A stretch of DNA of 64,000 bases, taken from the NCBI GenBank assembly GCA_964344635.1, contig CAYFOE010000003.1, forward strand, positions 24,389 to 88,388, written 5' to 3'. Positions within the stretch are counted from its first letter, which is position 1. Every line of letters begins with the position of its first letter. Origin of the DNA: Candidatus Woesearchaeota archaeon (GTDB lineage Archaea > Nanobdellota > Nanobdellia > SCGC-AAA011-G17 > UBA489). Under the pieces are notes generated by a model, which worked only from the letters and a program-made list of their open reading frames with translations, was not told the DNA's origin and did not search any database. Positions 24,144-63,344 of this stretch are shown piece after piece. A program made the position numbers and the translations under genes.

Positions 24144-26423
24144 ATGGCATTTAGAAAAGAGGGTCCTTATCAAGTAGTTAGAGAAGGTAATGAAGAAGTT
24201 TTGAGAGTAAACGCAATTTCTTGGAGCTATATCCCCTCAATTGAAGACATCCCACAAGTTATGTCCGAAGTTATAGACCACTTAGTTTCCTCTCCAGGCA
24301 TTAGGAGAATTGAATTCAACCAAAGAAAAAGATTTGCCTATTTTTATGACCAGACTCAAATGCTTTTAGAAATTGCAGGAATCTATTCTCACCTGATCAA
24401 AAACAAAAAAGCACTAAGTGTTTCAAGATGGGGCTTCGATGAAAAAAGTGCTAGATTCTTTGGAGGAAAACTAGGAGAATTACAACACTTAATCATGAAT
24501 CTCCTGAAGAGTGATCCAATTGGTGCATATGTTGAAACACTAAGAATAATCAGAGAAGAAAGAATCCTATTACAAAGAGACAAAGACGAAAAAATTGCAA
24601 GTGCTAGAACAAGTTACATTAAATTATTGGCAGAAATGGCAGACCTCCTAGGGAAAACCAAACTAATCCAACTAGCTGGCGACAGAATAGCAGGACACCA
24701 TGTAGGCGACAGAAAACTTTACAGGGATTACTTCCGTGCAACAATCACCCCAGATTTTATGTACACCAGACTAAAATCTAATCCGCCCCTGAAAGGAGAA
24801 GAGTTAGACTTCTACCAAGTAGGTTCAAATGAAGTTTCAATCTTTAGAATGCCTAACGACATCAAAAACTATTATCACTCCGTTCCCGTAGAATTCAAAT
24901 TAAGAGAAGACGAATATGAACTATTAGACCTTGCAAAAAACGTACTCGCAGGACATAAACCAAGAAATGAAGAATTTTTAGATCCCGAAAGAATGAGAAC
25001 AACATTCTTCAACATAGGAAAAGACCTATTGGACGAACTTGCAAAAAACAAAGGATACAATATCCCCTACGCAAGAATCTGCGACCTCGCCAGCATCCTA
25101 GTAAGATACACAGTAGGTTTTGGATTAATTGAAATATTACTAGCAGACAAAAAAGTACAAGACATTACAATAAACAGTCCCATCGGAAAATCACCAGTAT
25201 TTTTAGTACACCAAGATTACGGAGACTGCTACACCAACATCATGCCAAGTTTTGATGATGCACAAAGCTGGGCAACCAAATTTAGATTAATCAGTGGAAG
25301 ACCCTTAGACGAAGCAAATTCAGTTTTAGACACCGAACTAAATATTCCTGGAGGACGAAGCAGAGTAGCAATCATGACCAAACCCCTAAGTCCACAAGGG
25401 TTAGCCTTCGCATTCAGAAGACACAGAGATAGGCCATGGACACTACCATTATTCATTGAAAACAGAATGATCAGCCCACTAGGTGCAGGACTAGTTAGCT
25501 TCATGATCGACGGCGCTAGAACCATGTTAGTTGCAGGAACAAGAAGTAGCGGAAAGACAAGCTTACTTGGAAGCTTCTTAGTCGAAATAATGAGAAAATA
25601 CAGGATTATCACAGTTGAAGATACCTTAGAACTGCCTGTTGATTATATGAGGGGACTAGGATATAATGTTCAAAACATGAAAGTTCGTTCCGCACTAGCA
25701 CAAGGCGGTTCAGAGTTAGGCGCAGATGACGGAATTAGGACAAGCCTAAGACTGGGAGATAGCAGTTTGATCGTCGGAGAAGTAAGAAGTCTAGAAGCAA
25801 AAGCACTCTACGAAGCAATGAGAACCGGAGCACTAGCAAACGTAGTTGCAGGAACAATACACGGTGCAGATCCCTACGGAGTATTTGACAGAGTTGTAAA
25901 TGACCTCGGCGTTCCAAAAACAAGCTTCAAAGCAACAGACGCAATCATTGTCTCAAACCCAGTGAAAAGTGCAGATGGCCTGAGAAGTTGGAAAAGAGTC
26001 CTACAAATCTCAGAAGTCAGAAAACATTGGAATGACGACCCACTCGCAGAAAGAGGCTTTGTTGACTTAATGAAATATGACACTAAGAAAGACGAGTTAG
26101 TGCCCACCGCAGACCTGTTAAACGGAGAAAGTGACGTGATCAAATCCATCGCAGGAAACGTAAGAGAGTGGGTTGGAAACTGGGATGCAGTCTGGGAAAA
26201 TATCTTACTAAGAGCCAAGATAAAACAAACCTTAGTAGAATATTCCAGAAAAGCAAACAATAGAGAAATACTAGAATCCAATTTCGTCGTAGCATCAAAC
26301 GATGCATTCCACAGAGCCATCGAACAAGTTAGGAGAGAAGTCGGCGGCATCGATTCAAAGAGAGTTTTCTTTGAATGGGACGATTGGACAAGAAAGGCAA
26401 TAAAAAACCTTAAGAAAAAATAA
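24144..26423 (+). CDS. type II/IV secretion system ATPase (archaeal FlaI/PilB/GspE family) with about 300-aa N-terminal extension
   Basis: Walker A VAGTRSSGKTSLLGS. Walker B or Asp box IITVEDTLEL. His box VAGTIHGAD. 759 aa total. Confidence 0.85.
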   Translation: MAFRKEGPYQVVREGNEEVLRVNAISWSYIPSIEDIPQVMSEVIDHLVSSPGIRRIEFNQRKRFAYFYDQTQMLLEIAGIYSHLIKNKKALSVSRWGFDEKSARFFGGKLGELQHLIMNLLKSDPIGAYVETLRIIREERILLQRDKDEKIASARTSYIKLLAEMADLLGKTKLIQLAGDRIAGHHVGDRKLYRDYFRATITPDFMYTRLKSNPPLKGEELDFYQVGSNEVSIFRMPNDIKNYYHSVPVEFKLREDEYELLDLAKNVLAGHKPRNEEFLDPERMRTTFFNIGKDLLDELAKNKGYNIPYARICDLASILVRYTVGFGLIEILLADKKVQDITINSPIGKSPVFLVHQDYGDCYTNIMPSFDDAQSWATKFRLISGRPLDEANSVLDTELNIPGGRSRVAIMTKPLSPQGLAFAFRRHRDRPWTLPLFIENRMISPLGAGLVSFMIDGARTMLVAGTRSSGKTSLLGSFLVEIMRKYRIITVEDTLELPVDYMRGLGYNVQNMKVRSALAQGGSELGADDGIRTSLRLGDSSLIVGEVRSLEAKALYEAMRTGALANVVAGTIHGADPYGVFDRVVNDLGVPKTSFKATDAIIVSNPVKSADGLRSWKRVLQISEVRKHWNDDPLAERGFVDLMKYDTKKDELVPTADLLNGESDVIKSIAGNVREWVGNWDAVWENILLRAKIKQTLVEYSRKANNREILESNFVVASNDAFHRAIEQVRREVGGIDSKRVFFEWDDWTRKAIKNLKKK

Positions 26424-26437
26424 CCTGGTGAAATTAA

Positions 26438-28582
26438 GTGGCAGACAAAGTTGACGATATTTTAAAGAAGTACGAAAGAAAACTTGGAGACGAGTATGGA
26501 GAAAACTACCTAGAAGATTTCGAACCAAGGTTGACCCACAAAGAATACGAAATATTTCGTTCAGAAGTTCTAGAAAGAAAAGTCACCAACTATGAAAAAT
26601 GGTGTTATTTTGCTGAAAAAATTTTGAAAGTAACCCCCTCCAAAAAAGACTTACCCGAACTTGAAAAAAGCATAGAAGTTGCACACCTAAACATAACTCC
26701 TAGATCTGCAGCAAGCCTTGGGGCTTTGTCTGGTCTGTCTTTAATATTCCTAGGAATTTTAGTGCTAGTAATGAGCTATGTTTTCGGAAGTTTAAGCATA
26801 TTTTTCCCATTATTCTTGATCATAGGCGGAGCTTTAATAATAAAGCCCCTGAGCAATGCTCCAAACTACTTAGCCAACCGTTGGAGACTAGAAGCAAGCA
26901 ACCAGATGGTTTTGTGTATACTATACATTGTCATGTACATGAGACACACAAGCAACCTGGAACACGCAGTTAAGTTTGCAGCAGAACACGTCGGACCCCC
27001 ACTAAGTCTAGACTTAAAAAAAGTATTCTGGGATATCCAAACTGAAAGATTCTTCAGCATAAAAGAAAGCCTAGATAACTATCTAGAAAGTTGGAGAGAT
27101 CACAACTTAGAATTTGTAGAATCATTTCATTTAATCGAAGGAAGCTTATACGAATCCAATGAAGGAAGAAGAGTCGAGTTATTAGAAAAAGCCTTGGAAG
27201 TTATGCTTGATGGAACCTACAACAAAATGTTACATTATGCACACAACCTGAAAGGGCCAATCACACTACTCTACATGCTAGGAGTAATCCTACCAATCCT
27301 AGGATTGGTTATCTTTCCACTAGTTGGAAGCTTTATGGGCGGAGCAGTCAGGTGGTACCACCTGGCAATGTTGTACAATGTAATCTTACCCATTGTCCTG
27401 ATAGTCATGGGCAGCAACATGTTAGCCAAAAGGCCTACCGGCTATGGAGAAAGTGAACTGTTAAAGACTAACCCAGAATTTAGAATTTATGAAAAATGGA
27501 TAATCAATGACAAAGTCGTTCCATTGAATCCCAAAGTTGCAAGCATCTTATTAGGAAGCTTCATTGCATTCATAGGTTTTCTACCTCTATTAATACACTT
27601 AGTTAATCCAGGATATGATGTCTCTCTGGGAAACCTAGGACACTTCTTAGACTTCAAAGACAGTAGCGGACCTTACGGAACAGGCGCATTGTTAATGAGT
27701 TTACTAATTCCACTAGGAATTGCATTAGGAATTTCCATGTACTACGGAATTAAAACCAATCGCTTAATCAAAATAAAAAAGAAAGTTGACACACTCGAAG
27801 AAGAATTCAGCGGAGCAGTCTTCCAATTAGGAAACAGAGTCGGCGATGGAATCCCCTCAGAAGTTGCATTCGGAGAAGTAGCCAAAACCATGAGCGGAAC
27901 TCCTACCGGAAATTTCTTCAGCACCGTCGATAGAAACATTAGAAAGTTAGGCCACGACATGCGAAGAGCAGTATTCGACGCAAGAGTCGGAGCAATACTA
28001 CTATTCCCAAGCAATCTAATCAACAGCACCATGAAAGTTTTAATCGAAAGTGCAAAAAAAGGGCCCCTAGTTGTAAGTACAAGTTTAATCACAATCAGCA
28101 AATACGTCGATAGAATCAAACAAGTCAACGAGAGACTGAAAGACCTACTTGCAGATGTACTAAGTAGCATGACCAGCCAGATCAATTTCCTGACACCATT
28201 GATTGCAGGAATTGTTGTAGGTGTAGGAAGCATGGTAACTGCAATCATCAATAAGCTAGGATCTGCGTTTAAAGGCATCGGAACTGGAGGTGCAGACGTT
28301 CCCACAAACCTCGGAACCATTGCAAGCATAATGAGAATAGAAGACGCCATCCCAGGATTCTACTTCCAACTAGTCGTAGGAATTTACGTTTTACAAATCA
28401 CCCTGATACTCACACTATTAAGCACAAACATCGAAAGAGGATCTGACATGACAACAGCAAAACACAGAATGGGAAAAAACGTCAGAAAAAGCGTAATCTT
28501 TTACGTAATTGTTTCATTGATTGGCGTAATACTATTCAATCTATTAGCCAACACAGTAAATTTTGCAACCGGAAGCGTTTAA
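26438..28582 (+). CDS. polytopic platform membrane protein (FlaJ/TadC/GspF-like)
   Basis: 714 aa. Two soluble domains each followed by clusters of TM helices. Positioned immediately after the ATPase as in archaellum and archaeal pilus operons. Confidence 0.65.
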   Translation: MADKVDDILKKYERKLGDEYGENYLEDFEPRLTHKEYEIFRSEVLERKVTNYEKWCYFAEKILKVTPSKKDLPELEKSIEVAHLNITPRSAASLGALSGLSLIFLGILVLVMSYVFGSLSIFFPLFLIIGGALIIKPLSNAPNYLANRWRLEASNQMVLCILYIVMYMRHTSNLEHAVKFAAEHVGPPLSLDLKKVFWDIQTERFFSIKESLDNYLESWRDHNLEFVESFHLIEGSLYESNEGRRVELLEKALEVMLDGTYNKMLHYAHNLKGPITLLYMLGVILPILGLVIFPLVGSFMGGAVRWYHLAMLYNVILPIVLIVMGSNMLAKRPTGYGESELLKTNPEFRIYEKWIINDKVVPLNPKVASILLGSFIAFIGFLPLLIHLVNPGYDVSLGNLGHFLDFKDSSGPYGTGALLMSLLIPLGIALGISMYYGIKTNRLIKIKKKVDTLEEEFSGAVFQLGNRVGDGIPSEVAFGEVAKTMSGTPTGNFFSTVDRNIRKLGHDMRRAVFDARVGAILLFPSNLINSTMKVLIESAKKGPLVVSTSLITISKYVDRIKQVNERLKDLLADVLSSMTSQINFLTPLIAGIVVGVGSMVTAIINKLGSAFKGIGTGGADVPTNLGTIASIMRIEDAIPGFYFQLVVGIYVLQITLILTLLSTNIERGSDMTTAKHRMGKNVRKSVIFYVIVSLIGVILFNLLANTVNFATGSV

Positions 28583-28626
28583 ATAGATTAAAAACGATTA
28601 TAAATGATTGAATTAGGTGTTAATGT

Positions 28627-30915
28627 ATGGCAAAAGAGAGTGTTAACAGTTTTTACAAGAAGAGCATAATTCTATTTTCTAGTATGTTTTTGATACTAGC
28701 TGGATTTTTTTCAAAAACTGTAGATGCCGTAGTATATTTTGGGAATTATTATGGCGGAGGACTGTTTGGCTTTGGAGGTTCAGATTTATTGAGCCTTTAT
28801 TATTCCGCAAGCGGATGGTTTGATTTTGCACTGTTCTTCATGTTTTTCTATTCAATAGCAGACCTAGTCTTCAGTAAGAAATTTGGAGAAGAAAGATCTG
28901 CAAAAGGCTTAGCTTTAGCAGTGGGGTTGATGCTCTCATTAGGAGCCACACTATACCAAATGGCTAACGGCCTAGTCCTCTGGGATTGGGCAGGCCCAAT
29001 CGTAATCATGCTAGGAGTGTTACTAACATTTGCAACCGTGTTCTTAGCATTGAACCTACTGGGATTTCTCAAATGGTTATCAGCAATCCTTTCAGCAATA
29101 GTTACGTTGTTTGTATGGACTAGACTATGGGACAACAACTTCATCGATCTTGGCGATTTTTCAAACCCACTTGGAGCTGCAGGCCAATTTGTACTAGGAT
29201 TTATAGTTCTATTCTTAGCTGTAAAAATCCTAGCAGGATTAGCCAAACACAAAGGGAAGATTAAATTTCCAAAAATCAGAAGAAACAAAACCTCTTCTGT
29301 TCCTCCGCCCGTTCCAGACATCATAGACGACGTAGAATATACTGTAAGTCCTGTAGGCGAACCAATTCCTCGAAGTAAAGGCGCATTACTTCCTGGAAAA
29401 GAACAGAAAGCCTCAGAGGAATCAAAAGATTATTGGAAACAAACAAACATCAGCAAAGAAAGAATCTTACAATTATATTTAATTGTTAGAAAGATAAGAT
29501 CACTTTTGACTAACTGTTCAAAGAAAAGTAGACAAATAGAAGGGAGACTTGCAGGATTAAAAATTGAAATCCAAAAAGAAACAACCCTCTCAAGAGATAT
29601 AAAAAATTTAAACAAAAGAATCGACAAAGCCTACAAGGACTTATCTTATTTTGAAAAAACACTCCATTCAGAAAGCATTACCCTAGACGGCATTGAAAAT
29701 CTTAAAACATTCTTCGAAGGAATCATGAGAGACATTAACAAGATCTTGTCAGAAGTAAGTCATGTCAATTCAGTTAAGATGGACGTTAAAGCCATAGTTA
29801 GCTATTCTTCCAGTACTTGGAATGAAACCCTCAAAGATCTGAAAGAGAACGTTGTCGTTCTTAGATCCGAATTAGAAAGACATTTGAAAAAAAGCGCAAG
29901 AGGACTAACCCTCAGACAAGTACTGACCATACTGTCTACCTGGAAAAAGAACCTTCGTTCAGGAAGTTCAAGGCAAGTTACAAACTCCACAGCGAAACAG
30001 AAAGATTCTAATCAAGAAAATGTCGAAAGCGTATTTAGAGAAGTTGTCCTTAAGACTCATCCAGATAAAACTAGAAACTTTGATGAAGCTAGACGTGAAA
30101 AGTTGAGAAGACTGTTCGAACAAGCAACAGCATACAGAAAAGTAGGCGACCTGAATTCTTTAATCGGTGTCAGAGAAGAAGTTGACAGAATCTATAGCGA
30201 CTATGAAGCAGAAAGAGCTGAAGTTAAAAGAAAAAATTTAGCAGCAGGCGTAGACATCGAAGAATTTGAAAACCTACTATCCTTCCAAATAATGATTCCG
30301 AAATCCCATAAGAAAACTTTTGTTTCAGGGACAATGAAAAAAAGAAAGAGAGGATTAAACGTTGCCAACTTTGCATCCCACGTTATTTTCACACCGCCTA
30401 CAGGAGGAGAAGGAAACGCAAAAATAATGAGGCAACAACTAACAGAATTCATTCCAAACGCAATGAGTGCAGTCGAAGAAATAAAAAAATACCTAGACAA
30501 AATGGCATACTACTCAAGAGATTCCAAAACCTACAAACAATTTACCGAAATTCACAACAAAATAATCAAATACAAATCCATCGTAGATGACATCCAAACC
30601 AAAGTCCTTAGCAAAGGAATAATAAGATCTAGCTATAGGTCATTTACAAGATTAACTCAAGCAGACCCAACATTTATTGAAAAACTCTCAAAAAAATTCA
30701 AAATAGACCCATCAAAAATTACCTGGGGAAGCGTCGTTTCAGACCCAGACAAACTAGCATTCTTCTTAATGTATCCCGGAAAAAATTACGGACAAAAAGG
30801 ATTGTACGATTTCTTCGATAGAGCTTATGACTACTTTATAGATCTAGACATACAACTTGAAAAGATGAGGAATCTAATAAGTAGAAAGATCAAAAAAGGT
30901 TTGAAATATATTTGA
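28627..30915 (+). CDS. large membrane protein: N-terminal about 200-aa polytopic domain plus about 550-aa cytoplasmic coiled-coil region containing a J-domain-like HPDK segment
   Basis: TM helices to about residue 210. Then SVFREVVLKTHPDKTRNFDEARREKLRRLFEQATAYRKVGDL, which aligns with J-domain helices II and III around the invariant HPD. Confidence 0.45.
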   Translation: MAKESVNSFYKKSIILFSSMFLILAGFFSKTVDAVVYFGNYYGGGLFGFGGSDLLSLYYSASGWFDFALFFMFFYSIADLVFSKKFGEERSAKGLALAVGLMLSLGATLYQMANGLVLWDWAGPIVIMLGVLLTFATVFLALNLLGFLKWLSAILSAIVTLFVWTRLWDNNFIDLGDFSNPLGAAGQFVLGFIVLFLAVKILAGLAKHKGKIKFPKIRRNKTSSVPPPVPDIIDDVEYTVSPVGEPIPRSKGALLPGKEQKASEESKDYWKQTNISKERILQLYLIVRKIRSLLTNCSKKSRQIEGRLAGLKIEIQKETTLSRDIKNLNKRIDKAYKDLSYFEKTLHSESITLDGIENLKTFFEGIMRDINKILSEVSHVNSVKMDVKAIVSYSSSTWNETLKDLKENVVVLRSELERHLKKSARGLTLRQVLTILSTWKKNLRSGSSRQVTNSTAKQKDSNQENVESVFREVVLKTHPDKTRNFDEARREKLRRLFEQATAYRKVGDLNSLIGVREEVDRIYSDYEAERAEVKRKNLAAGVDIEEFENLLSFQIMIPKSHKKTFVSGTMKKRKRGLNVANFASHVIFTPPTGGEGNAKIMRQQLTEFIPNAMSAVEEIKKYLDKMAYYSRDSKTYKQFTEIHNKIIKYKSIVDDIQTKVLSKGIIRSSYRSFTRLTQADPTFIEKLSKKFKIDPSKITWGSVVSDPDKLAFFLMYPGKNYGQKGLYDFFDRAYDYFIDLDIQLEKMRNLISRKIKKGLKYI

Positions 30916-30938: not shown

Positions 30939-31373
30939 TTGGTGTTAAATATGGCAGATTTGGTGATACTTCCAGCGATTTACATGGGATTGATTATTGG
31001 GATTTATGAAGCTATCCTGTTACACAGAGATGTTAGTGTTCCAAAACATAGATTTGGACATATGATGCACGCATTAATTTTCGCAATGATTGCAGTTTTT
31101 GCAGCAATGAATGTCGAATTTGTTTTAGCCTTGATCCCAGCAATAGCGACAATACCTTACTTAGGAGAACCAATTGTATTTAGAATAGCAATCGCCTTGA
31201 TCGCAATCATTAAGATTCACGCAATAAGCGCTGCAGCTCCAGGAATTGCAGGCGGAAGTGTGGGCATGAAAGAAAAATGGAGTCACAGCTTCATAATCGG
31301 AGCACTAATCGTTGCAGCACACTACATATGGCCATTCATCGAACCAAGGGTAGGTTTTTTACCAGGAATATAA
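30939..31373 (+). CDS. membrane protein (4 TM), unknown
   Basis: Hydrophobic ORF within the pilus locus. Confidence 0.4.
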   Translation: MVLNMADLVILPAIYMGLIIGIYEAILLHRDVSVPKHRFGHMMHALIFAMIAVFAAMNVEFVLALIPAIATIPYLGEPIVFRIAIALIAIIKIHAISAAAPGIAGGSVGMKEKWSHSFIIGALIVAAHYIWPFIEPRVGFLPGI

Positions 31374-31375
31374 AC

Positions 31376-31630
31376 ATGGCTTATGGTTTAGAATCTAGCA
31401 TCTTGGCATACATGCCTTTCTTATTGATACCCTCAGTTCTTTTAGGAATCCTCGTATGGGAATTATTTTGGAAAGGACTAGGCCTCTGGGTTTCTGCAAG
31501 AACAGGACAAAGAAACTGGTTCATCTCAATACTAGTTCTGAATACACTAGGATTATTACCAATAATCTATCTAGTTTTCTTCCAAAAAATCTTACCCTCA
31601 AAAGGCAAAGTCAAGAGAAAAAAGAAATAA
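31376..31630 (+). CDS. small membrane protein (2 TM, Lys-rich C-terminus)
   Basis: ATG at 31376 (MAYGLESSILAYMPFLLIPSVLLGILVWE...). The listed ORF with an earlier start overlaps the upstream gene and is unlikely. Confidence 0.4.
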   Translation: MAYGLESSILAYMPFLLIPSVLLGILVWELFWKGLGLWVSARTGQRNWFISILVLNTLGLLPIIYLVFFQKILPSKGKVKRKKK

Positions 31631-32176
31631 TCACTTCTTATCATGAGGATGGTGGTGACCCGTCGTTCTTTCAAAGTAAGGCAATATCTTAACTAACCTA
31701 GGAATTCGAGTTATCGGCCTCAAAAACCTCACAGCAAACTTAGACCTCGAGAACCTGGTCAACTTTTCCGCCTCCCTTGCAATCTTGGCAGTCTCCTTCT
31801 CTACCGCACTAAGCTCTTTCACCCCCAAACTCGCATGCAATGCAGACTGACCCTCCTTCACAGTATCAGAAAAACGCAACAAGAAATATATCTCTTCTGC
31901 AGCTCTCAAGAATAAGTAAAACGGAAATACGGCAATTATATCTAACCAGTAAGACCTAACAAAAGGCTTAATTTTTCTAACCCTAATGAACTTGAACACA
32001 AGATCCACCACAAATAAAGAAATTATTGAATACTCTATCAATTCAAGAGCATGTTCATAATGGTGTGCGAAATCTTGAAAGAAAAAATGAATAATAATCA
32101 CAATAAGTAAGATAAAAATTGCATAAGGAATTATTTTATCAACCAAATGCTCCGCCCTATGAAACCCCTTTTTCAT
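31631..32176 (-). CDS. stand-alone voltage-sensor-domain-like membrane protein (S1-S4) with His-rich C-terminus
   Basis: S2-like SLFVVDLVFKFIRVRK. S3-like WLDIIAVFPFYLFL. S4-like RFSRSKFAVRFLRPITRIPRLVKIL with basic residues every third position. Ends GHHHPHDKK. No pore domain. Confidence 0.4.
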   Translation of the reverse strand: MKKGFHRAEHLVDKIIPYAIFILLIVIIIHFFFQDFAHHYEHALELIEYSIISLFVVDLVFKFIRVRKIKPFVRSYWLDIIAVFPFYLFLRAAEEIYFLLRFSDTVKEGQSALHASLGVKELSAVEKETAKIAREAEKLTRFSRSKFAVRFLRPITRIPRLVKILPYFERTTGHHHPHDKK

Positions 32177-32256
32177 AAATTATTTATTCTCAAATGAATA
32201 TTTAAGTTTAATGTACTTGGAAAGGCTTAAATATTTAGTTCAGGTGATTTAATCCT

Positions 32257-32367
32257 ATGAGGGGTCAGTACGGAACCAAGCATCTTGGTGTCTTAATCTT
32301 AGCAATCGTATTTTTCTTAATCATATTCTTAATTGTGAGAAACATCCTCGGAGGAGTGTTTAACTAA
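32257..32367 (+). CDS. possible small membrane peptide (36 aa)
   Basis: MRGQYGTKHLGVLILAIVFFLIIFLIVRNILGGVFN. It ends 1 nt before the next gene. Confidence 0.25.
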   Translation: MRGQYGTKHLGVLILAIVFFLIIFLIVRNILGGVFN

Positions 32368-32368
32368 A

Positions 32369-33268
32369 ATGAATAAAAAAGCAGCAATAGACATGCCCGC
32401 ATCTTTCTTGATTTCAGTAATCCTAGTAATGATAGTTGTAGCTGCATCCATCTTTTATTTTATGACAATTGCAGAAGTTTCTGAAGACATCGCCTTAGAT
32501 GATGCATGCAGGGCTAGTGTAGAAGCAAAATCCAGATTCAAGACAGACATTGCAGGAAGTCCTCTTTCTTTGAAATGCAGTCAAGAAGAAATAGTTTCTG
32601 AAGCAAAAACCAAAGAAGAAATCAGCTTAGAACTCACCCAAGAAATGTACAGTTGTTGGTACAAATACGGCGAAGGCCAAGTAGACTGGTTGAGCGATTG
32701 GGACTTTGGAGAAACAGACTTCCACTGCAGAATATGTTCCAGAATCTCTTACGGCGAAGATCACGAAGATTTAACCTTTGGCGAGTTTTACTCCTACCTA
32801 AACAATAAAAAAATACCCGGGAAAGACATTAGCTTTGCAGGATACTTCTCAGGAAATGAAAACGCAGTCCTACAATTTGGCGGTTCAGGGATGAACCAAT
32901 ACGACGCAATGGACTTAGATAAATCCGTTTACGTGGTTTATACAATCACCAAATTTGATCAAGATCGCTTAGATGACTTACAGAGACAATATGCATCATT
33001 CGAAGGAGGGGCAGCCTATGGAATGGGAAGCCTACCTGATGAAGTCGGTTCCGAAATTGATCCAGACCTAGTCAAAACAGGAGGAGCGGCAGTAGTTACC
33101 GGAGTAGCAGGAACAATCTTAGGATTCACACCAGTCGGATGGATCATAGCATTCGGCGCACTATCCAGCTGGGCAATATATGAACTATCCGGATCAGCAG
33201 AAATCCCATACTATTCGCTGGCTTTATTAAGTGCAGACGACATCGCAGGAATGTGTAGTGGGAGTTAA
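32369..33268 (+). CDS. pilin-like protein with class-III-type N-terminal signal/anchor
   Basis: MNKKAAIDMPASFLISVILVMIVVAASIFYF, then a Cys-containing extracellular domain. Confidence 0.45.
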   Translation: MNKKAAIDMPASFLISVILVMIVVAASIFYFMTIAEVSEDIALDDACRASVEAKSRFKTDIAGSPLSLKCSQEEIVSEAKTKEEISLELTQEMYSCWYKYGEGQVDWLSDWDFGETDFHCRICSRISYGEDHEDLTFGEFYSYLNNKKIPGKDISFAGYFSGNENAVLQFGGSGMNQYDAMDLDKSVYVVYTITKFDQDRLDDLQRQYASFEGGAAYGMGSLPDEVGSEIDPDLVKTGGAAVVTGVAGTILGFTPVGWIIAFGALSSWAIYELSGSAEIPYYSLALLSADDIAGMCSGS

Positions 33269-33273
33269 ACAAA

Positions 33274-33408
33274 ATGGAAGGAGAGACACTAGGAAAACTT
33301 ATATTTTATGTAGCACTACTAATCCTATTAATATTAATAATAACAGAATTTTCACAAGGACAATTTAACCTATTAGAAAAACTAGAGGGGGTATTAAGAT
33401 TCAAATGA
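33274..33408 (+). CDS. small pilin-like peptide (44 aa)
   Basis: MEGETLGKLIFYVALLILLILIITEF. Confidence 0.3.
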   Translation: MEGETLGKLIFYVALLILLILIITEFSQGQFNLLEKLEGVLRFK

Positions 33409-33548
33409 TATACGGAAAAAAAGGTGCAGAACTAGCTATTGAAAAATTAATCAAATGGATAATAATCATAGCCATGATAGTAATCTTATTCTACTTTTTA
33501 ACAGGAATCAAGGAGGTAAGTGAAGCTTTCCTAAGCATCTTTAACTAA
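33405..33548 (+). CDS. small pilin-like peptide (47 aa)
   Basis: MIYGKKGAELAIEKLIKWIIIIAMIVILFYF: KKG followed by a hydrophobic helix. ATGA overlap with the previous ORF. Confidence 0.3.
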   Translation: MIYGKKGAELAIEKLIKWIIIIAMIVILFYFLTGIKEVSEAFLSIFN

Positions 33549-33549
33549 A

Positions 33550-35112
33550 ATGAACAAAAAAGGAGACGCATTAGCCTTACGAAACATGATAGTGTTAATC
33601 ATCTTGATTCTTGTACTAGTGTGGGCCCTTGCAGGGCCTCTAAAATCCAGCCAACTTCTAGGCAGAGACCTAGGAGAAAAATCCTCAGAATTTGGTGAGT
33701 CATTCAAAGCATTAGAAATAGAAAGACTACTCACAATCGATAAAGATAAACTAAGTGACGAAGAAAGAGAACTCTTAGAAAGCGATGAAGTCGCAAATGC
33801 AAAAAGCAGCATAAATCTTGCAAGGAAATACATAGACGAAAGCAGGTATGAAGATGCAAGACAAGTATTAACAGAATCAAAAGAAAGTTTAGACTCTATT
33901 CGAGATTTTGAACTATTGAATGAAATCGATTCCCTAGTTGAAAAAACCAGAGAATACGAAAGACAAGCCCCATGGGAAGAAGAACTAGAAGTTCTAGAAC
34001 AAAGATACAGCCTATACAAAGGAACTAACGAAAAAGAAAAACTAGAACAATTAAGATTTGATGTGTTGAACTTCATGGAAGGAAAATACGGAAGAATTGC
34101 AGACGAAGCTAACGATCTATTGAAATCTATTGAAACAGACTTGAAGAGGTTGGGCGTTAGTTTTGTTGAAGGCGAAGCGAATTTAATCTCAGAGTATGAA
34201 CTTTTGATTACAACCGAAGGCGAAGACTATGAATATCTCTCCTTAGCAAGAGAATTTGTAGAACACTTCCCAACAAAAATTAATGAAATATTCAACTTGT
34301 ATAAACATGCAGAAGAAAAAGCAACAGACGATTATACCAAAGCAGTCTCAATCTTAGAATTAGCAACATTCTTTTACAACAAAGAAATGAAGTCCAATGC
34401 AGCATACGAATACAACAGAATTTACGCAGACATCTCCCTGAAATCCTCACTGAGTTCGGAAGATCTCAAAACATTACTGCGCAATAGAGGACTATTGTTA
34501 GATGAAGGATACTCTGAACTATTTTATTGGGATTTCATTGCAGTCAGCAAATTAACCTACAAGACAGGAATATTTTCATGGACTAAAATTGTAAGAGTTA
34601 ATTTCCCTTTTAATTTCCATTTTAAAGACGGCAGAACAACCGAGGTCTCCAAGTTTAATTCACTATTTGATAAAAAAGACTTCCAAACATTCGATGACCA
34701 GAAAAAGAAAGTTTCATTCTTTGTAGACTACTGGAAGAATATTGGAGCTTATAGCTCAAACGTTAGAAGTTTAACAGACGGAAACGATTTCCGAGGCCTT
34801 TATGACGGAAGTGATAACTTTGACTTTGTAGTAAGACTCTGGGGCGTAAACCAAGAATTCTTAGGCTGGTGTGCAATAGCAGAAGATTCAACAAAACCCC
34901 TACAAGAATACCTAGATAACAACATACCCGTAATCGGAAAAGATACAAGGGGCCGCACACATTGTATCGGTGCAAACGGAAACGAAGTTAATCCGTACAT
35001 GCTAGTTAATGTAATGAGTATCGAAGAATTAGACGACTCAAGCAGGATAACTCTGAGTCTAGAACTGTTAAAAGAATTCAAACCAGTCAAGCCTTACGAA
35101 TTGCAAGTATAG
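33550..35112 (+). CDS. large pilin-like / pilus-associated protein (520 aa) with class-III-type N-terminus
   Basis: MNKKGDALALRNMIVLIILILVLVWALAG, then a long acidic coiled-coil-rich and Cys-containing domain. Confidence 0.45.
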   Translation: MNKKGDALALRNMIVLIILILVLVWALAGPLKSSQLLGRDLGEKSSEFGESFKALEIERLLTIDKDKLSDEERELLESDEVANAKSSINLARKYIDESRYEDARQVLTESKESLDSIRDFELLNEIDSLVEKTREYERQAPWEEELEVLEQRYSLYKGTNEKEKLEQLRFDVLNFMEGKYGRIADEANDLLKSIETDLKRLGVSFVEGEANLISEYELLITTEGEDYEYLSLAREFVEHFPTKINEIFNLYKHAEEKATDDYTKAVSILELATFFYNKEMKSNAAYEYNRIYADISLKSSLSSEDLKTLLRNRGLLLDEGYSELFYWDFIAVSKLTYKTGIFSWTKIVRVNFPFNFHFKDGRTTEVSKFNSLFDKKDFQTFDDQKKKVSFFVDYWKNIGAYSSNVRSLTDGNDFRGLYDGSDNFDFVVRLWGVNQEFLGWCAIAEDSTKPLQEYLDNNIPVIGKDTRGRTHCIGANGNEVNPYMLVNVMSIEELDDSSRITLSLELLKEFKPVKPYELQV

Positions 35113-35153
35113 CATGAAAAGGTTTATATATTGATTAAGGAGTGTTTATAATA

Positions 35154-35603
35154 ATGGAAAAAAGAGTTGCTTTAAGGAATTACTTAAAGGATAAGAGAGG
35201 TGTCGAGCTTACACTTAATACCGTTATAATTTCAATACTAGTTGTTTTAGTCCTAGTTGTAATTATTGCATTCTTTTTAGGTGGAACCACCAAAGCAAAA
35301 GGTACTATTGCAGAAATTTATAACGTAGGATCCGCAGGTGCAGACATAGAACAAGCAATCCTTCTTTGTAACAACTACTGTGACCAAGCAAGAGATTGGA
35401 ATCCGACACTGCAAACAAACTCGCCCTACTGTACTAAAGCGTTCAAACTAGACCTAGATGGTGATGGCGAAGCAGATAAAATTGAATCTACAGGGGGATA
35501 TGAAGAATATTACTGTGCAGGTTCAACTTTGAATGTCAGGTGTCCAGATATTTTGAATACTCCAGGCGTGACCTGTAAGACCGAAGACGTAGTGGCTAAT
35601 TAG
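35154..35603 (+). CDS. pilin-like protein
   Basis: MEKRVALRNYLKDKRGVELTLNTVIISILVVLVLVVIIAFF. C-terminal Cys-rich domain with DLDGDGEADKIE. ATG at 35154 preferred over the upstream GTG of the listed ORF. Confidence 0.45.
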   Translation: MEKRVALRNYLKDKRGVELTLNTVIISILVVLVLVVIIAFFLGGTTKAKGTIAEIYNVGSAGADIEQAILLCNNYCDQARDWNPTLQTNSPYCTKAFKLDLDGDGEADKIESTGGYEEYYCAGSTLNVRCPDILNTPGVTCKTEDVVAN

Positions 35604-35637
35604 TCAAGTTTATATAATCTTCAATTAATTTTATTCT

Positions 35638-36126
35638 ATGAGATTTTTTGATAAAAGAGGAGAAATTTCTGCAGATTGGACTGGCGCGACACTTGTAGAA
35701 GCAGTAATATTAATGCTTATGATCGCTGCAGCAGGATCAGTCCTCACAATTTGGTTTCAAAATGATGATGAAGGCCTAGGAAGCTTCAACTCACTAGATA
35801 CCGCCATAAGAAACGTTCATGCAGGAAGATCAACAAGTGAAAGTGTTGATGTAAACCTAGGCAAAGAAAAATCTTTAGTCTTATTTGGAAATTCTACAGA
35901 AGAATGTACTTTAGATAAGCCCATGATCTGTGAAGGTGAAGCCTGTCTATGCTTATGTGATGTCGCAGAAGCTTCAGTTAGCTGCGGAACCTCAAAAGAA
36001 CTATGTAAAACATACAGGGACGATGTTGAATTCATAAAAGGTTGTCCATTTCTTCCAGGAAGAGAAAGCAGATATTCTATAAAAGTCATGAAAAATTCCG
36101 AAGACAGAATTTATTTAAGCACTTAG
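35638..36126 (+). CDS. pilin-like protein with bacterial-type-IV-pilin-like N-terminus
   Basis: GATLVEAVILMLMIAAAGSVL has Glu at +5 after Gly. Cys-rich C-terminal domain. Confidence 0.45.
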   Translation: MRFFDKRGEISADWTGATLVEAVILMLMIAAAGSVLTIWFQNDDEGLGSFNSLDTAIRNVHAGRSTSESVDVNLGKEKSLVLFGNSTEECTLDKPMICEGEACLCLCDVAEASVSCGTSKELCKTYRDDVEFIKGCPFLPGRESRYSIKVMKNSEDRIYLST

Positions 36127-36160
36127 AAAACAATATAAACTTTTTTGACATTTTTATCCT

Positions 36161-36529
36161 ATGAACAAAAAGGGGTACGATATGTCTTTGATACATGTCA
36201 TTTATTTAGTCATAGGATTAATCATCCTAATCTCAGCACTAGGAAAAATCTACATGAATAAAGACGACACAGGATATTACCTAGAATACTATTCTAAAGA
36301 TCTCTCAGTAGGGATCGAAGCATTCCTCCAATCAGACATAGAAGGAAGTTTCGTATATGGATTGAGAGAAGGTTTTGAAGTTAAAATAGATAATTCCGAA
36401 GGCAAAGTTTACGTAAAGAACGATAACGCCATAGTAGATGATGACTTTAGGACAAGAGATGGTTTTTTCATAAATTTGAAAACTGAGGAAAATAATTTGA
36501 TCATCAACAAGAGAGAGGCAACAGTATAA
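36161..36529 (+). CDS. pilin-like protein
   Basis: MNKKGYDMSLIHVIYLVIGLIILISALG. Confidence 0.4.
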   Translation: MNKKGYDMSLIHVIYLVIGLIILISALGKIYMNKDDTGYYLEYYSKDLSVGIEAFLQSDIEGSFVYGLREGFEVKIDNSEGKVYVKNDNAIVDDDFRTRDGFFINLKTEENNLIINKREATV

Positions 36530-36936
36530 TGCCCGGAACTTTAATCATACAGGAAGAAATTAAGTGGACAGTCACCACAATAGTCCTCACAATCAGTTTG
36601 CTCATGGTTGTTGCAGGCATGGAAGCCTTTATCAACAGAGAGGTGAGATCCGAAAATGTTGAAATCTTATTAGAAAAAGAATTTGTCAAATCCAGTTTTT
36701 TGAAAGACGGAAATATTGATCTGAATGCATTAGAAAATCTAGAAATTAATGACAACTTCGGTTTAATGCTAGAAATTAAAGGAAATAGATACTATGCAAA
36801 CAAGCCAAGATACGACGAAGGAGTTTTTTGTGAAACCTGGGACAACTATTATTGCAGAAACTATGAAGAATTATACCTAGTTGACGGACAGCTTGAAAGC
36901 GTAAACTTTAGGATGGTGATGAGAGATGTTAGCTAA
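36529..36936 (+). CDS. pilin-like / membrane-anchored protein
   Basis: N-terminal TM WTVTTIVLTISLLMVVAG. Overlapping junctions with both neighbours. Confidence 0.4.
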   Translation: MPGTLIIQEEIKWTVTTIVLTISLLMVVAGMEAFINREVRSENVEILLEKEFVKSSFLKDGNIDLNALENLEINDNFGLMLEIKGNRYYANKPRYDEGVFCETWDNYYCRNYEELYLVDGQLESVNFRMVMRDVS

Positions 36937-37447
36937 AAAAGGAGCCTTTCCTTTAATCGACTTTTTTTCAGGACTTGCACTATTGTTTATTCTAAGCGCA
37001 TACCTCTACATTATGTCCTTCTCAAACATCGGAGACTTTTTAGGAGACAACGAAAGAATTGATTCAATTACCGCCCCTCACTCCCAAGATTATATTTTTG
37101 CAATGCTAAGCTCACCCGTTGAAGATTCAAACAGTGTTATAGATTATATCCTAAAAGAAAAAGATTCGGGGAACTATACTGCAGTGCAAAAATTCTTTGA
37201 AAGACACCTCAATGAAGACGGAGTTTATTGGACAGTAAAGTTTAGTTTTGAAGAAGACGACATAATAGAGTTTAGCAGACAAAATTGGATTTCAGAAAGA
37301 ATGTTTAAGACTAACGCAGAGTTCTTTGTTCCGAATTACTATGACCAAAGCCTGATCAAAGTTAATTTTTTGAAAGGAAAAGGAATCTCTCAAACCCAAT
37401 ACGATTATGAAAGACCGCCAGGCTATGCATTGAGAGGTGTAGTATGA
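36926..37447 (+). CDS. pilin-like protein
   Basis: MLAKKGAFPLIDFFSGLALLFILSAYLYI. Confidence 0.4.
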   Translation: MLAKKGAFPLIDFFSGLALLFILSAYLYIMSFSNIGDFLGDNERIDSITAPHSQDYIFAMLSSPVEDSNSVIDYILKEKDSGNYTAVQKFFERHLNEDGVYWTVKFSFEEDDIIEFSRQNWISERMFKTNAEFFVPNYYDQSLIKVNFLKGKGISQTQYDYERPPGYALRGVV

Positions 37448-38202
37448 ACTATTCAAAAAAAGGAATGTTTATCTTTTTCACACTAATGATTGTCGTATTC
37501 TTGATATTAGCAGTATTCATAGTATTCTTCTCAGACAGGCCCGACGTAGATGAAAGTCTGAAAATCGGAGAAGTAGTCATCGGAGTCTATGATGCAAATG
37601 CAGAACTAAAAGAATACAATTTTTTCTTGAAAAAATCAGCAGAATATGCCTTGATGAAAAGTTTAGAAGAAGGACTAAAAAACGGCCATGTTGACAAAGA
37701 AATCCTTTTAGAAGAAATGAAAACAAGTTTTAATGGACACCTTGACAACTATCTAAAAGATCGCCCCGAAATTAATTTTTCCGAAACTGAACTAAACTTC
37801 AATGGAAGCGGATTTTTTGCAAAAGGTATGGCCGAAAGTTTAGTAAGTGTTTCCGATAGGAGAAATTATAACCTTACGGGGAGGCCTAATTTTGATATCT
37901 ACTGGAAATATGATTTTGATTGGTATGAAGAAATGGAAAGAATACTAGTTGACAATTTTTACTGTCTAGAAATATCTAGGGATAATGCAATTTTAGCAGA
38001 CATTGCAAGTGAAAACCTTGAAGAAGAACTTCCCTCAAAGTGTTTGTTAGAATATCCTAAGTTTAAAAGTGTTGAAAAAACCGAAGGAGTTCTGACTTTT
38101 AACTATCTCGCAGAAGGTCACGAATTTGAAGACCAAATTGAGGTCCCTATGAAGGTTGTGCTTTCAGATTTAGAAGACTCTTTAAATAAAGACCTAGTTT
38201 AG
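37444..38202 (+). CDS. pilin-like protein
   Basis: MNYSKKGMFIFFTLMIVVFLILAVFIVFF. Confidence 0.4.
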   Translation: MNYSKKGMFIFFTLMIVVFLILAVFIVFFSDRPDVDESLKIGEVVIGVYDANAELKEYNFFLKKSAEYALMKSLEEGLKNGHVDKEILLEEMKTSFNGHLDNYLKDRPEINFSETELNFNGSGFFAKGMAESLVSVSDRRNYNLTGRPNFDIYWKYDFDWYEEMERILVDNFYCLEISRDNAILADIASENLEEELPSKCLLEYPKFKSVEKTEGVLTFNYLAEGHEFEDQIEVPMKVVLSDLEDSLNKDLV

Positions 38203-41111: not shown

Positions 41112-41185
41112 TGTCCCTGCCAGGATTTGAACCTGACTCTCAACCTCCGCAAGGTTACGTGCTATCCAGACTACACCACAGGGAC
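41112..41185 (-). tRNA. tRNA-Arg (anticodon GCG); no encoded CCA
   Basis: Reverse complement folds as: acceptor GTCCCTG/CAGGGAC; D arm GTGT-AGTCTGGATA-GCAC; anticodon arm TAACC-TTGCGGA-GGTTG; T arm TCAGG-TTCAAAT-CCTGG; discriminator A. 74 nt. Confidence 0.85.
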
Positions 41186-63124: not shown

Positions 63125-63163
63125 TAAGCTATATAAACCATTTTTTTGGCATAGAATAATTAT

Positions 63164-63236
63164 AGCCCTGTAGTGTAGTGGTCAAGCATAGGGGATTTTG
63201 GGTCCCTTGACCCAGGTTCAAATCCTGGCAGGGCTA
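63164..63236 (+). tRNA. tRNA-Gln (anticodon TTG); no encoded CCA
   Basis: Acceptor AGCCCTG/CAGGGCT; D arm GTGT-AGTGGTCAA-GCAT; anticodon arm GGGGA-TTTTGGG-TCCCT; T arm CCAGG-TTCAAAT-CCTGG; discriminator A. Confidence 0.85.
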
Positions 63237-63344
63237 TTTAATCAAAAGTCTTATAAATGGCTTAGAAGAGGAGTAAATAAGAAGGGTGGAATGGTGAAGG
63301 CTGTTTCATACTGGATATGATTCTAGTGACCCTTAACAAATAAA

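Follow-up and report, generated by a model that had tools for sequence, protein, structure and literature searches.

Voltage-sensor domains (VSDs) without a pore are known from the Hv1 proton channels, from the voltage-sensing phosphatases Ci-VSP and TPTE, and from TMEM266 (HVRP1), a vertebrate protein with a long cytoplasmic tail. All of the VSD-only proteins known before came from eukaryotes. It was stated in 2019 that "prokaryotic counterparts ... have not been reported" (PMC6768053), and Hv channels and pore-less sensors have been said to be absent from prokaryotes (PMC10377628, PMC13095418). Here we analysed a stretch of 64,000 nucleotides from a Candidatus Woesearchaeota archaeon (assembly GCA_964344635.1, contig CAYFOE010000003.1, positions 24,389 to 88,388), called the window below. 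It carries, on the minus strand at 31631–32176, a gene whose 181-residue product resembles the S1–S4 half of a voltage-gated cation channel. Judging from sequence, VSD-only proteins occur in archaea as well. No prior description of the archaeal family was found in the full-text literature, and its public records are annotated automatically only. A paper on DPANN protein families (PMC8204110) contains no mention of voltage, ion channels or potassium.

The open reading frame runs from ATG to TGA, stop codon included, and the 181-residue minus-strand product quoted in an earlier note on this DNA is its exact translation. In the Pfam search proposed by that note, the protein matched Ion_trans with an E-value of 2e-6 and 27.6 bits, above the curated cut-off of 25. 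Residues 20–170 were aligned with profile positions 8–114 of 241, which is the S1–S4 half only, and 51 of 61 family members matched Ion_trans individually. When a profile of 133 family sequences was compared with all PDB sequences, voltage-gated channels only were found at the top, with NavCt 4bgn at an E-value of 3.5e-4, KvAP 6uwm at 5.8e-4 and the isolated KvAP sensor 1ors at 4.9e-3. The six best matches were NavCt and KvAP chains (3.5e-4 to 0.02). Weak S4-to-S4 matches with KvAP and NavCt were also observed, colinear in order, and the homology searches led to no unrelated family. This likeness to voltage sensors is not due to chance, because the curated Ion_trans threshold was passed and homologues of the same length are kept in 149 species genomes. 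A search of the VSD protein against NCBIfam gave nothing above threshold, and phmmer with the single protein against PDB returned only noise from His-tags. A match to Pfam T4SS_pilin was rejected (E-value of 0.021, 15.3 bits against a cut-off of 26.6); it covered the hydrophobic S1 only.

The protein ends 15 residues past S4. Its stop codon directly abuts the stop codon of a convergent gene, which leaves no space for a pore after S4, and the K+ filter motif was absent from the VSD reading frame and from the neighbouring reading frames of the window. The lack of an S5-P-S6 pore, which had been claimed earlier, is borne out by this early end and by an Ion_trans match restricted to the first half of the profile. 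Sequence and predicted structure together make it very probable that the 181-residue protein is an S1–S4 homologue encoded alone.

Four hydrophobic segments had been described in this protein. Three are strongly hydrophobic on the Kyte-Doolittle scale, namely S1 (residues 15–33), S2 (43–66) and S3 (77–100), whereas the fourth (144–166) is an amphipathic, basic stretch holding 7 K/R. Its highest 19-residue value, 0.78, lies in the range of canonical S4 helices (0.67–1.4). The suggested topology of four transmembrane (TM) helices with the N-terminus inside is consistent with the charge distribution, as the S1-S2 loop is acidic whereas N-terminus, S2-S3 loop and C-terminus carry basic charge, which fits an N-in/C-in arrangement. 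With an alignment of 61 sequences AlphaFold was confident for S1–S3 only. With 133 sequences the model had a predicted local distance difference test score (pLDDT) of 82.7 and a predicted template modelling score (pTM) of 0.64. Helices were predicted at 3–32, 41–66, 77–83, 86–116, 122–140 and 144–155, and the pLDDT was 83 over residues 151–160 in S4. The isolated KvAP VSD could be superimposed over 113 of 132 residues. A Foldseek comparison with PDB gave no significant match, the best being NavAb with an E-value of 2.5.

Conservation was counted in alignment columns over 133 family representatives. In S1 (32078–32134, minus strand, as are the other segments), delimited by hydropathy, column counts and clade comparison, position 30 is E/D in 121 representatives and His in the window protein. 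S2 (31979–32050) carries an outer acidic residue at 48, the charge-transfer residues F55 and D58, and K62; D48 was found in 127, F55 in 129, D58 in 132 and K62 in 113 of the representatives, and the window protein carries E48 where the family has D. The acidic and aromatic S2 pointed out in the earlier note is real, since its motif FVVDLVFKF holds F55, D58 and K62. S3 (31877–31948) contains W77 (132 of 133), the inner acidic residue 79 (D/E in 132; Asp in the window protein) and P85 (133 of 133) within WLDIIAVFPF. The AVFPFYL signature read in S3 is therefore present and includes the family-invariant proline. Our summary of the 133 representatives puts the signature residues other than K62 (85%) and R144 at 90% conservation or more.

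An hhalign comparison of the family with single KvAP and Hv1 sequences was weak, covered S1–S3 and S2 only, respectively, and serves for residue correspondence only. F55, D58 and K62 were aligned with the S2 of KvAP and NavCt and with F150, E153 and K157 of Hv1, S3 was aligned with LYEIPALVP of KvAP S3, and D62 and E93 of KvAP also fall on residues of the conserved set.

S4 (residues 144–166, RSKFAVRFLRPITRIPRLVKILP, 31679–31747) contains R144, K146, R150, R153, R157, R160 and K163, and the basic residues of the window protein over this region are at 141, 144, 146, 150, 153, 157, 160 and 163. The family consensus is R144, R/K147, R150 and R153, followed after a one-residue shift by R157, R160 and K163. 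R150 was counted in 108, R153 in 96, R157 in 120, R160 in 127 and K163 in 70 of the 133 representatives; position 144 is Arg in 92 (69%, or 81% R or K) and position 147 is R/K in 79. The median number of basic residues at positions 141–166 is 7 across the family. A basic residue at every third position had been claimed for the terminal segment. This pattern is cleaner in the family consensus and imperfect in the window protein, which has Phe at 147 and a spacing of four residues from 153 to 157. Two moderately conserved prolines, P154 and P159, are located within S4. The charge-transfer centre (F55, D58, D79) is complete in the window protein. By the residues present, everything that S4 arginines would need to cross the membrane field is kept: D/E48, F55, D58, D79 and 5–7 basic residues in S4.

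S3 and S4 are joined by a helical hairpin (residues 101–143, 31748–31876) that is predicted to be extracellular and carries the conserved Q110 (124 of 133) and H114 (127 of 133). The stretch from R91 to R144 has a median of 45 residues across the family. On the outer face, the acidic residues E/D30 in S1, E115 and E118 are present in most of the family. The marine clade to which the window belongs (the window and loci L003 and L008–L012) has lost these three outer acidic residues and retains Q110 and H114. Position 30 is H, T, S or L there, position 115 is A, G or L, and position 118 is Gly in 6 of the 7 loci, window included. This loss could point to an altered site for extracellular cations or to a different voltage range.

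The His-rich tail GHHHPHD (residues 173–179, 31640–31660) had been suggested as a Zn site by analogy with Hv1. The motif is present in the translation, but it is specific to particular clades and is predicted to be cytoplasmic, whereas the Zn site of Hv1 is extracellular. HH.H follows S4 in 11 of the 133 representatives and at least three His in 41, and a looser His cluster, usually HHxH, was seen in about half of the GTDB loci, again in particular clades.

The closest systems by sequence are KvAP and the bacterial channels NavCt and NavAb (BacNav), with which the family shares D...F..D...K in S2, D..A..P in S3 and the arginine ladder of S4. In NavCt and NavAb a proline and then basic residues follow the arginine ladder, as in the family, where this stretch is similar to the S4/S4-S5 hinge of bacterial sodium channels; the exact register is ambiguous. 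Unlike these channels, the archaeal proteins have no S5-P-S6, a hairpin of about 45 residues between S3 and S4 in place of a short paddle turn, prolines within S4, and a Lys/His-rich tail. Ci-VSP and TPTE likewise have an S1–S4 sensor whose S4 controls something other than an attached pore. Their S4 is followed by a PTEN-like phosphatase, whereas the archaeal protein has only 15 residues in that place and no domain in Pfam or NCBIfam. Hv1 has the same architecture, as the earlier note had proposed, but the likeness stops there: its Asp in the middle of S1 (D112 in human), the Trp of S4 (RxWRxxR) and the coiled-coil tail are all absent from the archaeal protein. By these sequence features the archaeal protein belongs to neither the Hv1 nor the voltage-sensing phosphatase family. 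TMEM266, pore-less and apparently non-conducting, offers the nearest functional analogy for a sensor that has no known effector. TMEM266 is regulated by extracellular Zn2+ according to Papp et al. (2019), as cited in PMC13095418.

A word-indexed search gave 66 close homologues, all of about 100–230 residues. The few named ones are called "hypothetical protein" or "ion transporter" and come from Woesearchaeota or Nanoarchaeota (for example MDP3917527.1 and MBW2965128.1). When 1.84 billion cluster representatives were searched exhaustively with a profile, 661 matches were obtained at E ≤ 1e-3, with 153 at E ≤ 1e-30, each match standing for a cluster at 50% identity. The best 150 of the 661 matches were 90–351 residues long, mostly 160–220, and were aligned end to end; family members are typically about 150–250 residues long, and the pore signature was absent from the longer members that were read. 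In one longer member, of 352 residues (L023 10001–11056, plus strand), the VSD is followed by an additional C-terminal TM helix and by a Cys-containing domain of some 150 residues. Such a fusion is rare, as the family is otherwise built of one domain.

A pattern scan found relatives in 149 GTDB species genomes. The 80 loci listed from these genomes are labelled Woesearchaeota, Nanoarchaeota/Nanoarchaeia, "archaeon", one Nanohaloarchaea, one Nanobdellati and 10 "uncultured Methanosarcinales". Titles with "uncultured Methanosarcinales archaeon" include L015, L023, L038, L048, L054, L055, L060, L072 and L083. The Methanosarcinales label looks doubtful, because the sequences and their neighbours cluster with loci of DPANN archaea (Woesearchaeota, Nanoarchaeota). 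Among the loci found here, the VSD-only family is confined to DPANN-type archaea (Woesearchaeota/Nanoarchaeota). Because it is limited to a single lineage of archaea and is related most closely to sensors that belong to full channels, the family was probably derived by loss of the pore and is unlikely to be primordial.

We lean slightly towards a free voltage sensor that acts in trans on a neighbouring membrane protein as the best explanation of these genes. S4 would move with the membrane potential, and its movement would be sensed by a separately encoded membrane protein; a readout in trans is suggested because nothing is attached to S4. The best candidate partner in the window would be a protein of 140 residues encoded two genes away (30951–31373, plus strand), in which E20, N54, K88 and H90 could make up a site for permeation or for an effector function. 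A divergent 6-TM K+ channel with an uncharged fourth helix would take the place of this partner in other lineages. Such coupling is plausible, because split channels and a free VSD that co-assembles functionally with the pore-only Kir2.1 have been reported (bioRxiv 10.64898/2026.08.07.743441). Those systems are engineered or heterologous, whereas the archaeal pairing, which gene linkage suggests, would be natural. As a mechanism, coupling in trans is a tentative proposal to which we give a little less than an even chance.

The 140-residue protein is the most consistent neighbour of the VSD-only genes. It is rich in His and has four predicted TM helices, with E20, N54, K88 and H90 as conserved polar or charged residues in these helices or at their ends. 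A cluster of His residues (H25, H33, H37, H40, H112) is placed on the predicted cytoplasmic face, the topology being inferred. No relative of the protein was found in Pfam, NCBIfam or PDB. Its gene trails the last upstream gene of a pilus-like locus by 23–35 nucleotides, depending on the start codon, on the same strand. Between it and the VSD gene is wedged a gene for a small DUF5652 membrane protein (31376–31630, plus strand, Pfam E-value of 3.9e-21), whose stop codon is the one that abuts the VSD stop codon; it is kept only in the closest marine relatives (5 loci).

Neighbours were clustered over 88 loci, window included, and two families were found to recur beside the VSD gene, the 140-residue protein and the K+ channel. 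In 16 of the 88 loci the VSD gene had a gene for the 140-residue protein no more than 6 kb away, most often as its immediate neighbour. These 16 loci represent two clades whose VSDs are 34–49% identical. In the marine clade the two genes converge, whereas in the other clade most pairs are divergent and about 0–50 nucleotides apart. In the reverse test, which took in independent metagenome loci with a 140-residue homologue and at least 1.5 kb on both sides, a VSD-only gene was located within 1.5 kb in 23 of 35 loci, always on the opposite strand. At least 537 homologues were found, all of about 140 residues and none with a Pfam domain, with Woesearchaeota, Nanoarchaeota and unclassified archaea as named sources, and many of them share their longest contig with VSD proteins. 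Adjacency is also confirmed by NCBI locus tags (HOF78_00345/_00355 and CL617_00055/_00060).

Several observations weigh against coupling in trans. Its support is gene linkage and not physical interaction, and the counts are inflated by shared descent, as a large part of the syntenic loci comes from small genomes that are related. About half of the VSD-only loci have neither partner nearby, and neither a fold nor a function has been assigned to the 140-residue protein. Two prolines are located within S4, and voltage dependence may be atypical in the marine clade because E/D30, E115 and E118 are lost there; Phe147 points the same way.

Alternatively, the VSD itself could be the permeation path, as in an Hv1-like voltage-gated proton or cation channel, perhaps modulated by metal through the histidines. 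We consider this unlikely. The shared architecture of a VSD without a pore speaks for it, as do the conserved His114 in the outer hairpin and the outer acidic cluster E30, D48, E115 and E118 in most of the family, which recall the Zn sites on the extracellular side of Hv1 and of TMEM266 (for the latter, as cited in PMC13095418). However, the core of S1 (residues 17–29) is without D/E in 132 of the 133 representatives and in the window protein, so that the selectivity-filter residue Asp112 of Hv1 has no counterpart. The S4 Trp is totally conserved in Hv1 (PMC10377628), whereas the S4 of the window protein has none, and a Trp anywhere in S4 was found in 13 of 133 representatives. The hhalign match to human Hv1 reached S2 only, and the C-terminal coiled coil is missing. 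The intact F55/D58/D79 plug and the full arginine ladder are typical of non-conducting sensors, and on the sequence they make self-conduction less likely.

A second alternative, which we regard as similarly improbable, is that the protein lends voltage sensing, as an auxiliary subunit, to a K+ channel whose gene is elsewhere in the genome, and that the local neighbours are irrelevant. The channel in question is a 6-TM K+ channel of about 300–340 residues (Ion_trans_2, E-values of 5e-8 to 7e-12) with the filter T-x-G-Y-G, four N-terminal helices without S4 charges, and a long charged, EKE-rich C-terminal tail. It was encoded immediately upstream of the VSD gene and divergent from it in 16 of 77 evaluable loci, scattered over the VSD tree, and identity among the VSDs paired with it goes down to 38%. 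The contexts of four further channel homologues were examined, and in two of them a VSD-only gene was divergently adjacent; one is the marine locus L089, where the channel has a TxGYG filter and an uncharged fourth helix. Head-to-head arrangements were seen, for example, in L006 (4898–5923, minus strand), L049, L055, L038, L021, L015, L023, L088 and L089. The N-terminal four helices of the channel showed no detectable relation to the VSD family (E-value of 0.62) or to the 140-residue protein. Against this alternative, a channel homologue was absent from the 64-kb window, and none of 98 channel homologues shared its longest contig with a VSD of the window clade, although those contigs reach 223–299 kb. 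In addition, none of the examined loci had both types of partner.

The setting of the gene suggests a third alternative, that the protein is a membrane component or regulator of a type-IV-pilus-like machinery, for example one that couples pilus activity to membrane energisation. The VSD gene is located in the middle of a pilus-like locus, on the opposite strand. The upstream half of this archaeal locus (24144–30915, plus strand) encodes an ATPase of the T2SSE type (24144–26423, 759 residues, Pfam T2SSE E-value of 2.8e-14) and two large proteins. Large proteins of the locus gave no above-threshold match in Pfam, and one of them, of 762 residues, combines a multi-TM N-terminus with a DnaJ-like stretch that is likewise below threshold. 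The downstream half (32369–38202, plus strand) encodes small pilin-like proteins, whose translations show N-terminal K/R-G motifs ahead of a hydrophobic stretch and whose families are common to the loci of the relatives. This synteny is common to the close marine relatives L003 and L008–L012. The distant L036 (36% VSD identity) has the same kind of locus with the VSD gene differently placed and oriented, and a T2SSE-family ATPase homologue is found within 6 kb in four more loci. The 140-residue partner also trails the ATPase operon closely and on the same strand. However, 77 of the 88 loci (window counted) are not near any pilus-like locus, and the T4SS_pilin match is below threshold and confined to S1. 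Pilus systems are not known to include a VSD. We consider a role in the pilus improbable, slightly more so than the two alternatives above. The position of the gene inside the pilus locus, left without explanation in the earlier note, is now explained in part, in that the recurrent 140-residue partner ends the upstream pilus operon.

That the gene is a functionless remnant of a 6-TM channel gene, left by truncation or splitting, could be suggested by its nearest detectable relatives, the sensors of full-length channels, but it is effectively refuted by the conservation of length, end points and key residues over 149 species and 661 clusters at 50% identity, by the convergent neighbour abutting the stop codon, and, for a simple frameshift split, by adjacent channel genes lying on the opposite strand.

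The VSD gene shares an intergenic region (32177–32368) with the divergent gene at 32369–33268. A TTAAATA motif, similar to an archaeal TATA element, begins 29 nucleotides upstream of the VSD ATG and is a candidate promoter. In one clade, divergent genes for large proteins precede the VSD-only gene (L013 2414–9936 on the minus strand, L016, L030, L032, L052, L053 and L059). These proteins have 1,170–1,330 residues where complete (L013, L030) and weak Ig-like (Big_13) matches; they are probably surface proteins and gave no functional lead. The G+C content of the window is 36.9%, and the only Rfam or ARAGORN matches in it were tRNA-Arg(GCG) at 41112–41185 (minus strand) and tRNA-Gln(TTG) at 63163–63237 (plus strand).

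A conserved gating-charge apparatus in about 150 archaeal species contradicts the general claim that prokaryotes have no pore-less sensors. The probable derivation of the family from a full channel limits what can be claimed about evolution. As a natural isolated sensor of about 180 residues, the protein could serve biophysics and the engineering of sensors. Its conserved linkage, either to a 4-TM protein or to a K+ channel that lacks S4 charges, makes natural voltage sensing in trans testable, and with it the origin of 6-TM channels by fusion of such modules. That DPANN archaea have a natural two-gene voltage-gated system, in which a free S1–S4 sensor gates a separate permeation protein in trans, is a possibility that we put forward with considerable doubt. 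If true, the two-gene system would be the first stand-alone voltage sensor of a prokaryote and a living example of the stage, postulated for the origin of voltage-gated channels, at which sensor and pore modules are still unfused, and the 140-residue protein would be a new kind of voltage-controlled effector. The family also raises the question of what membrane voltage means for the tiny, probably host-dependent cells of DPANN archaea.

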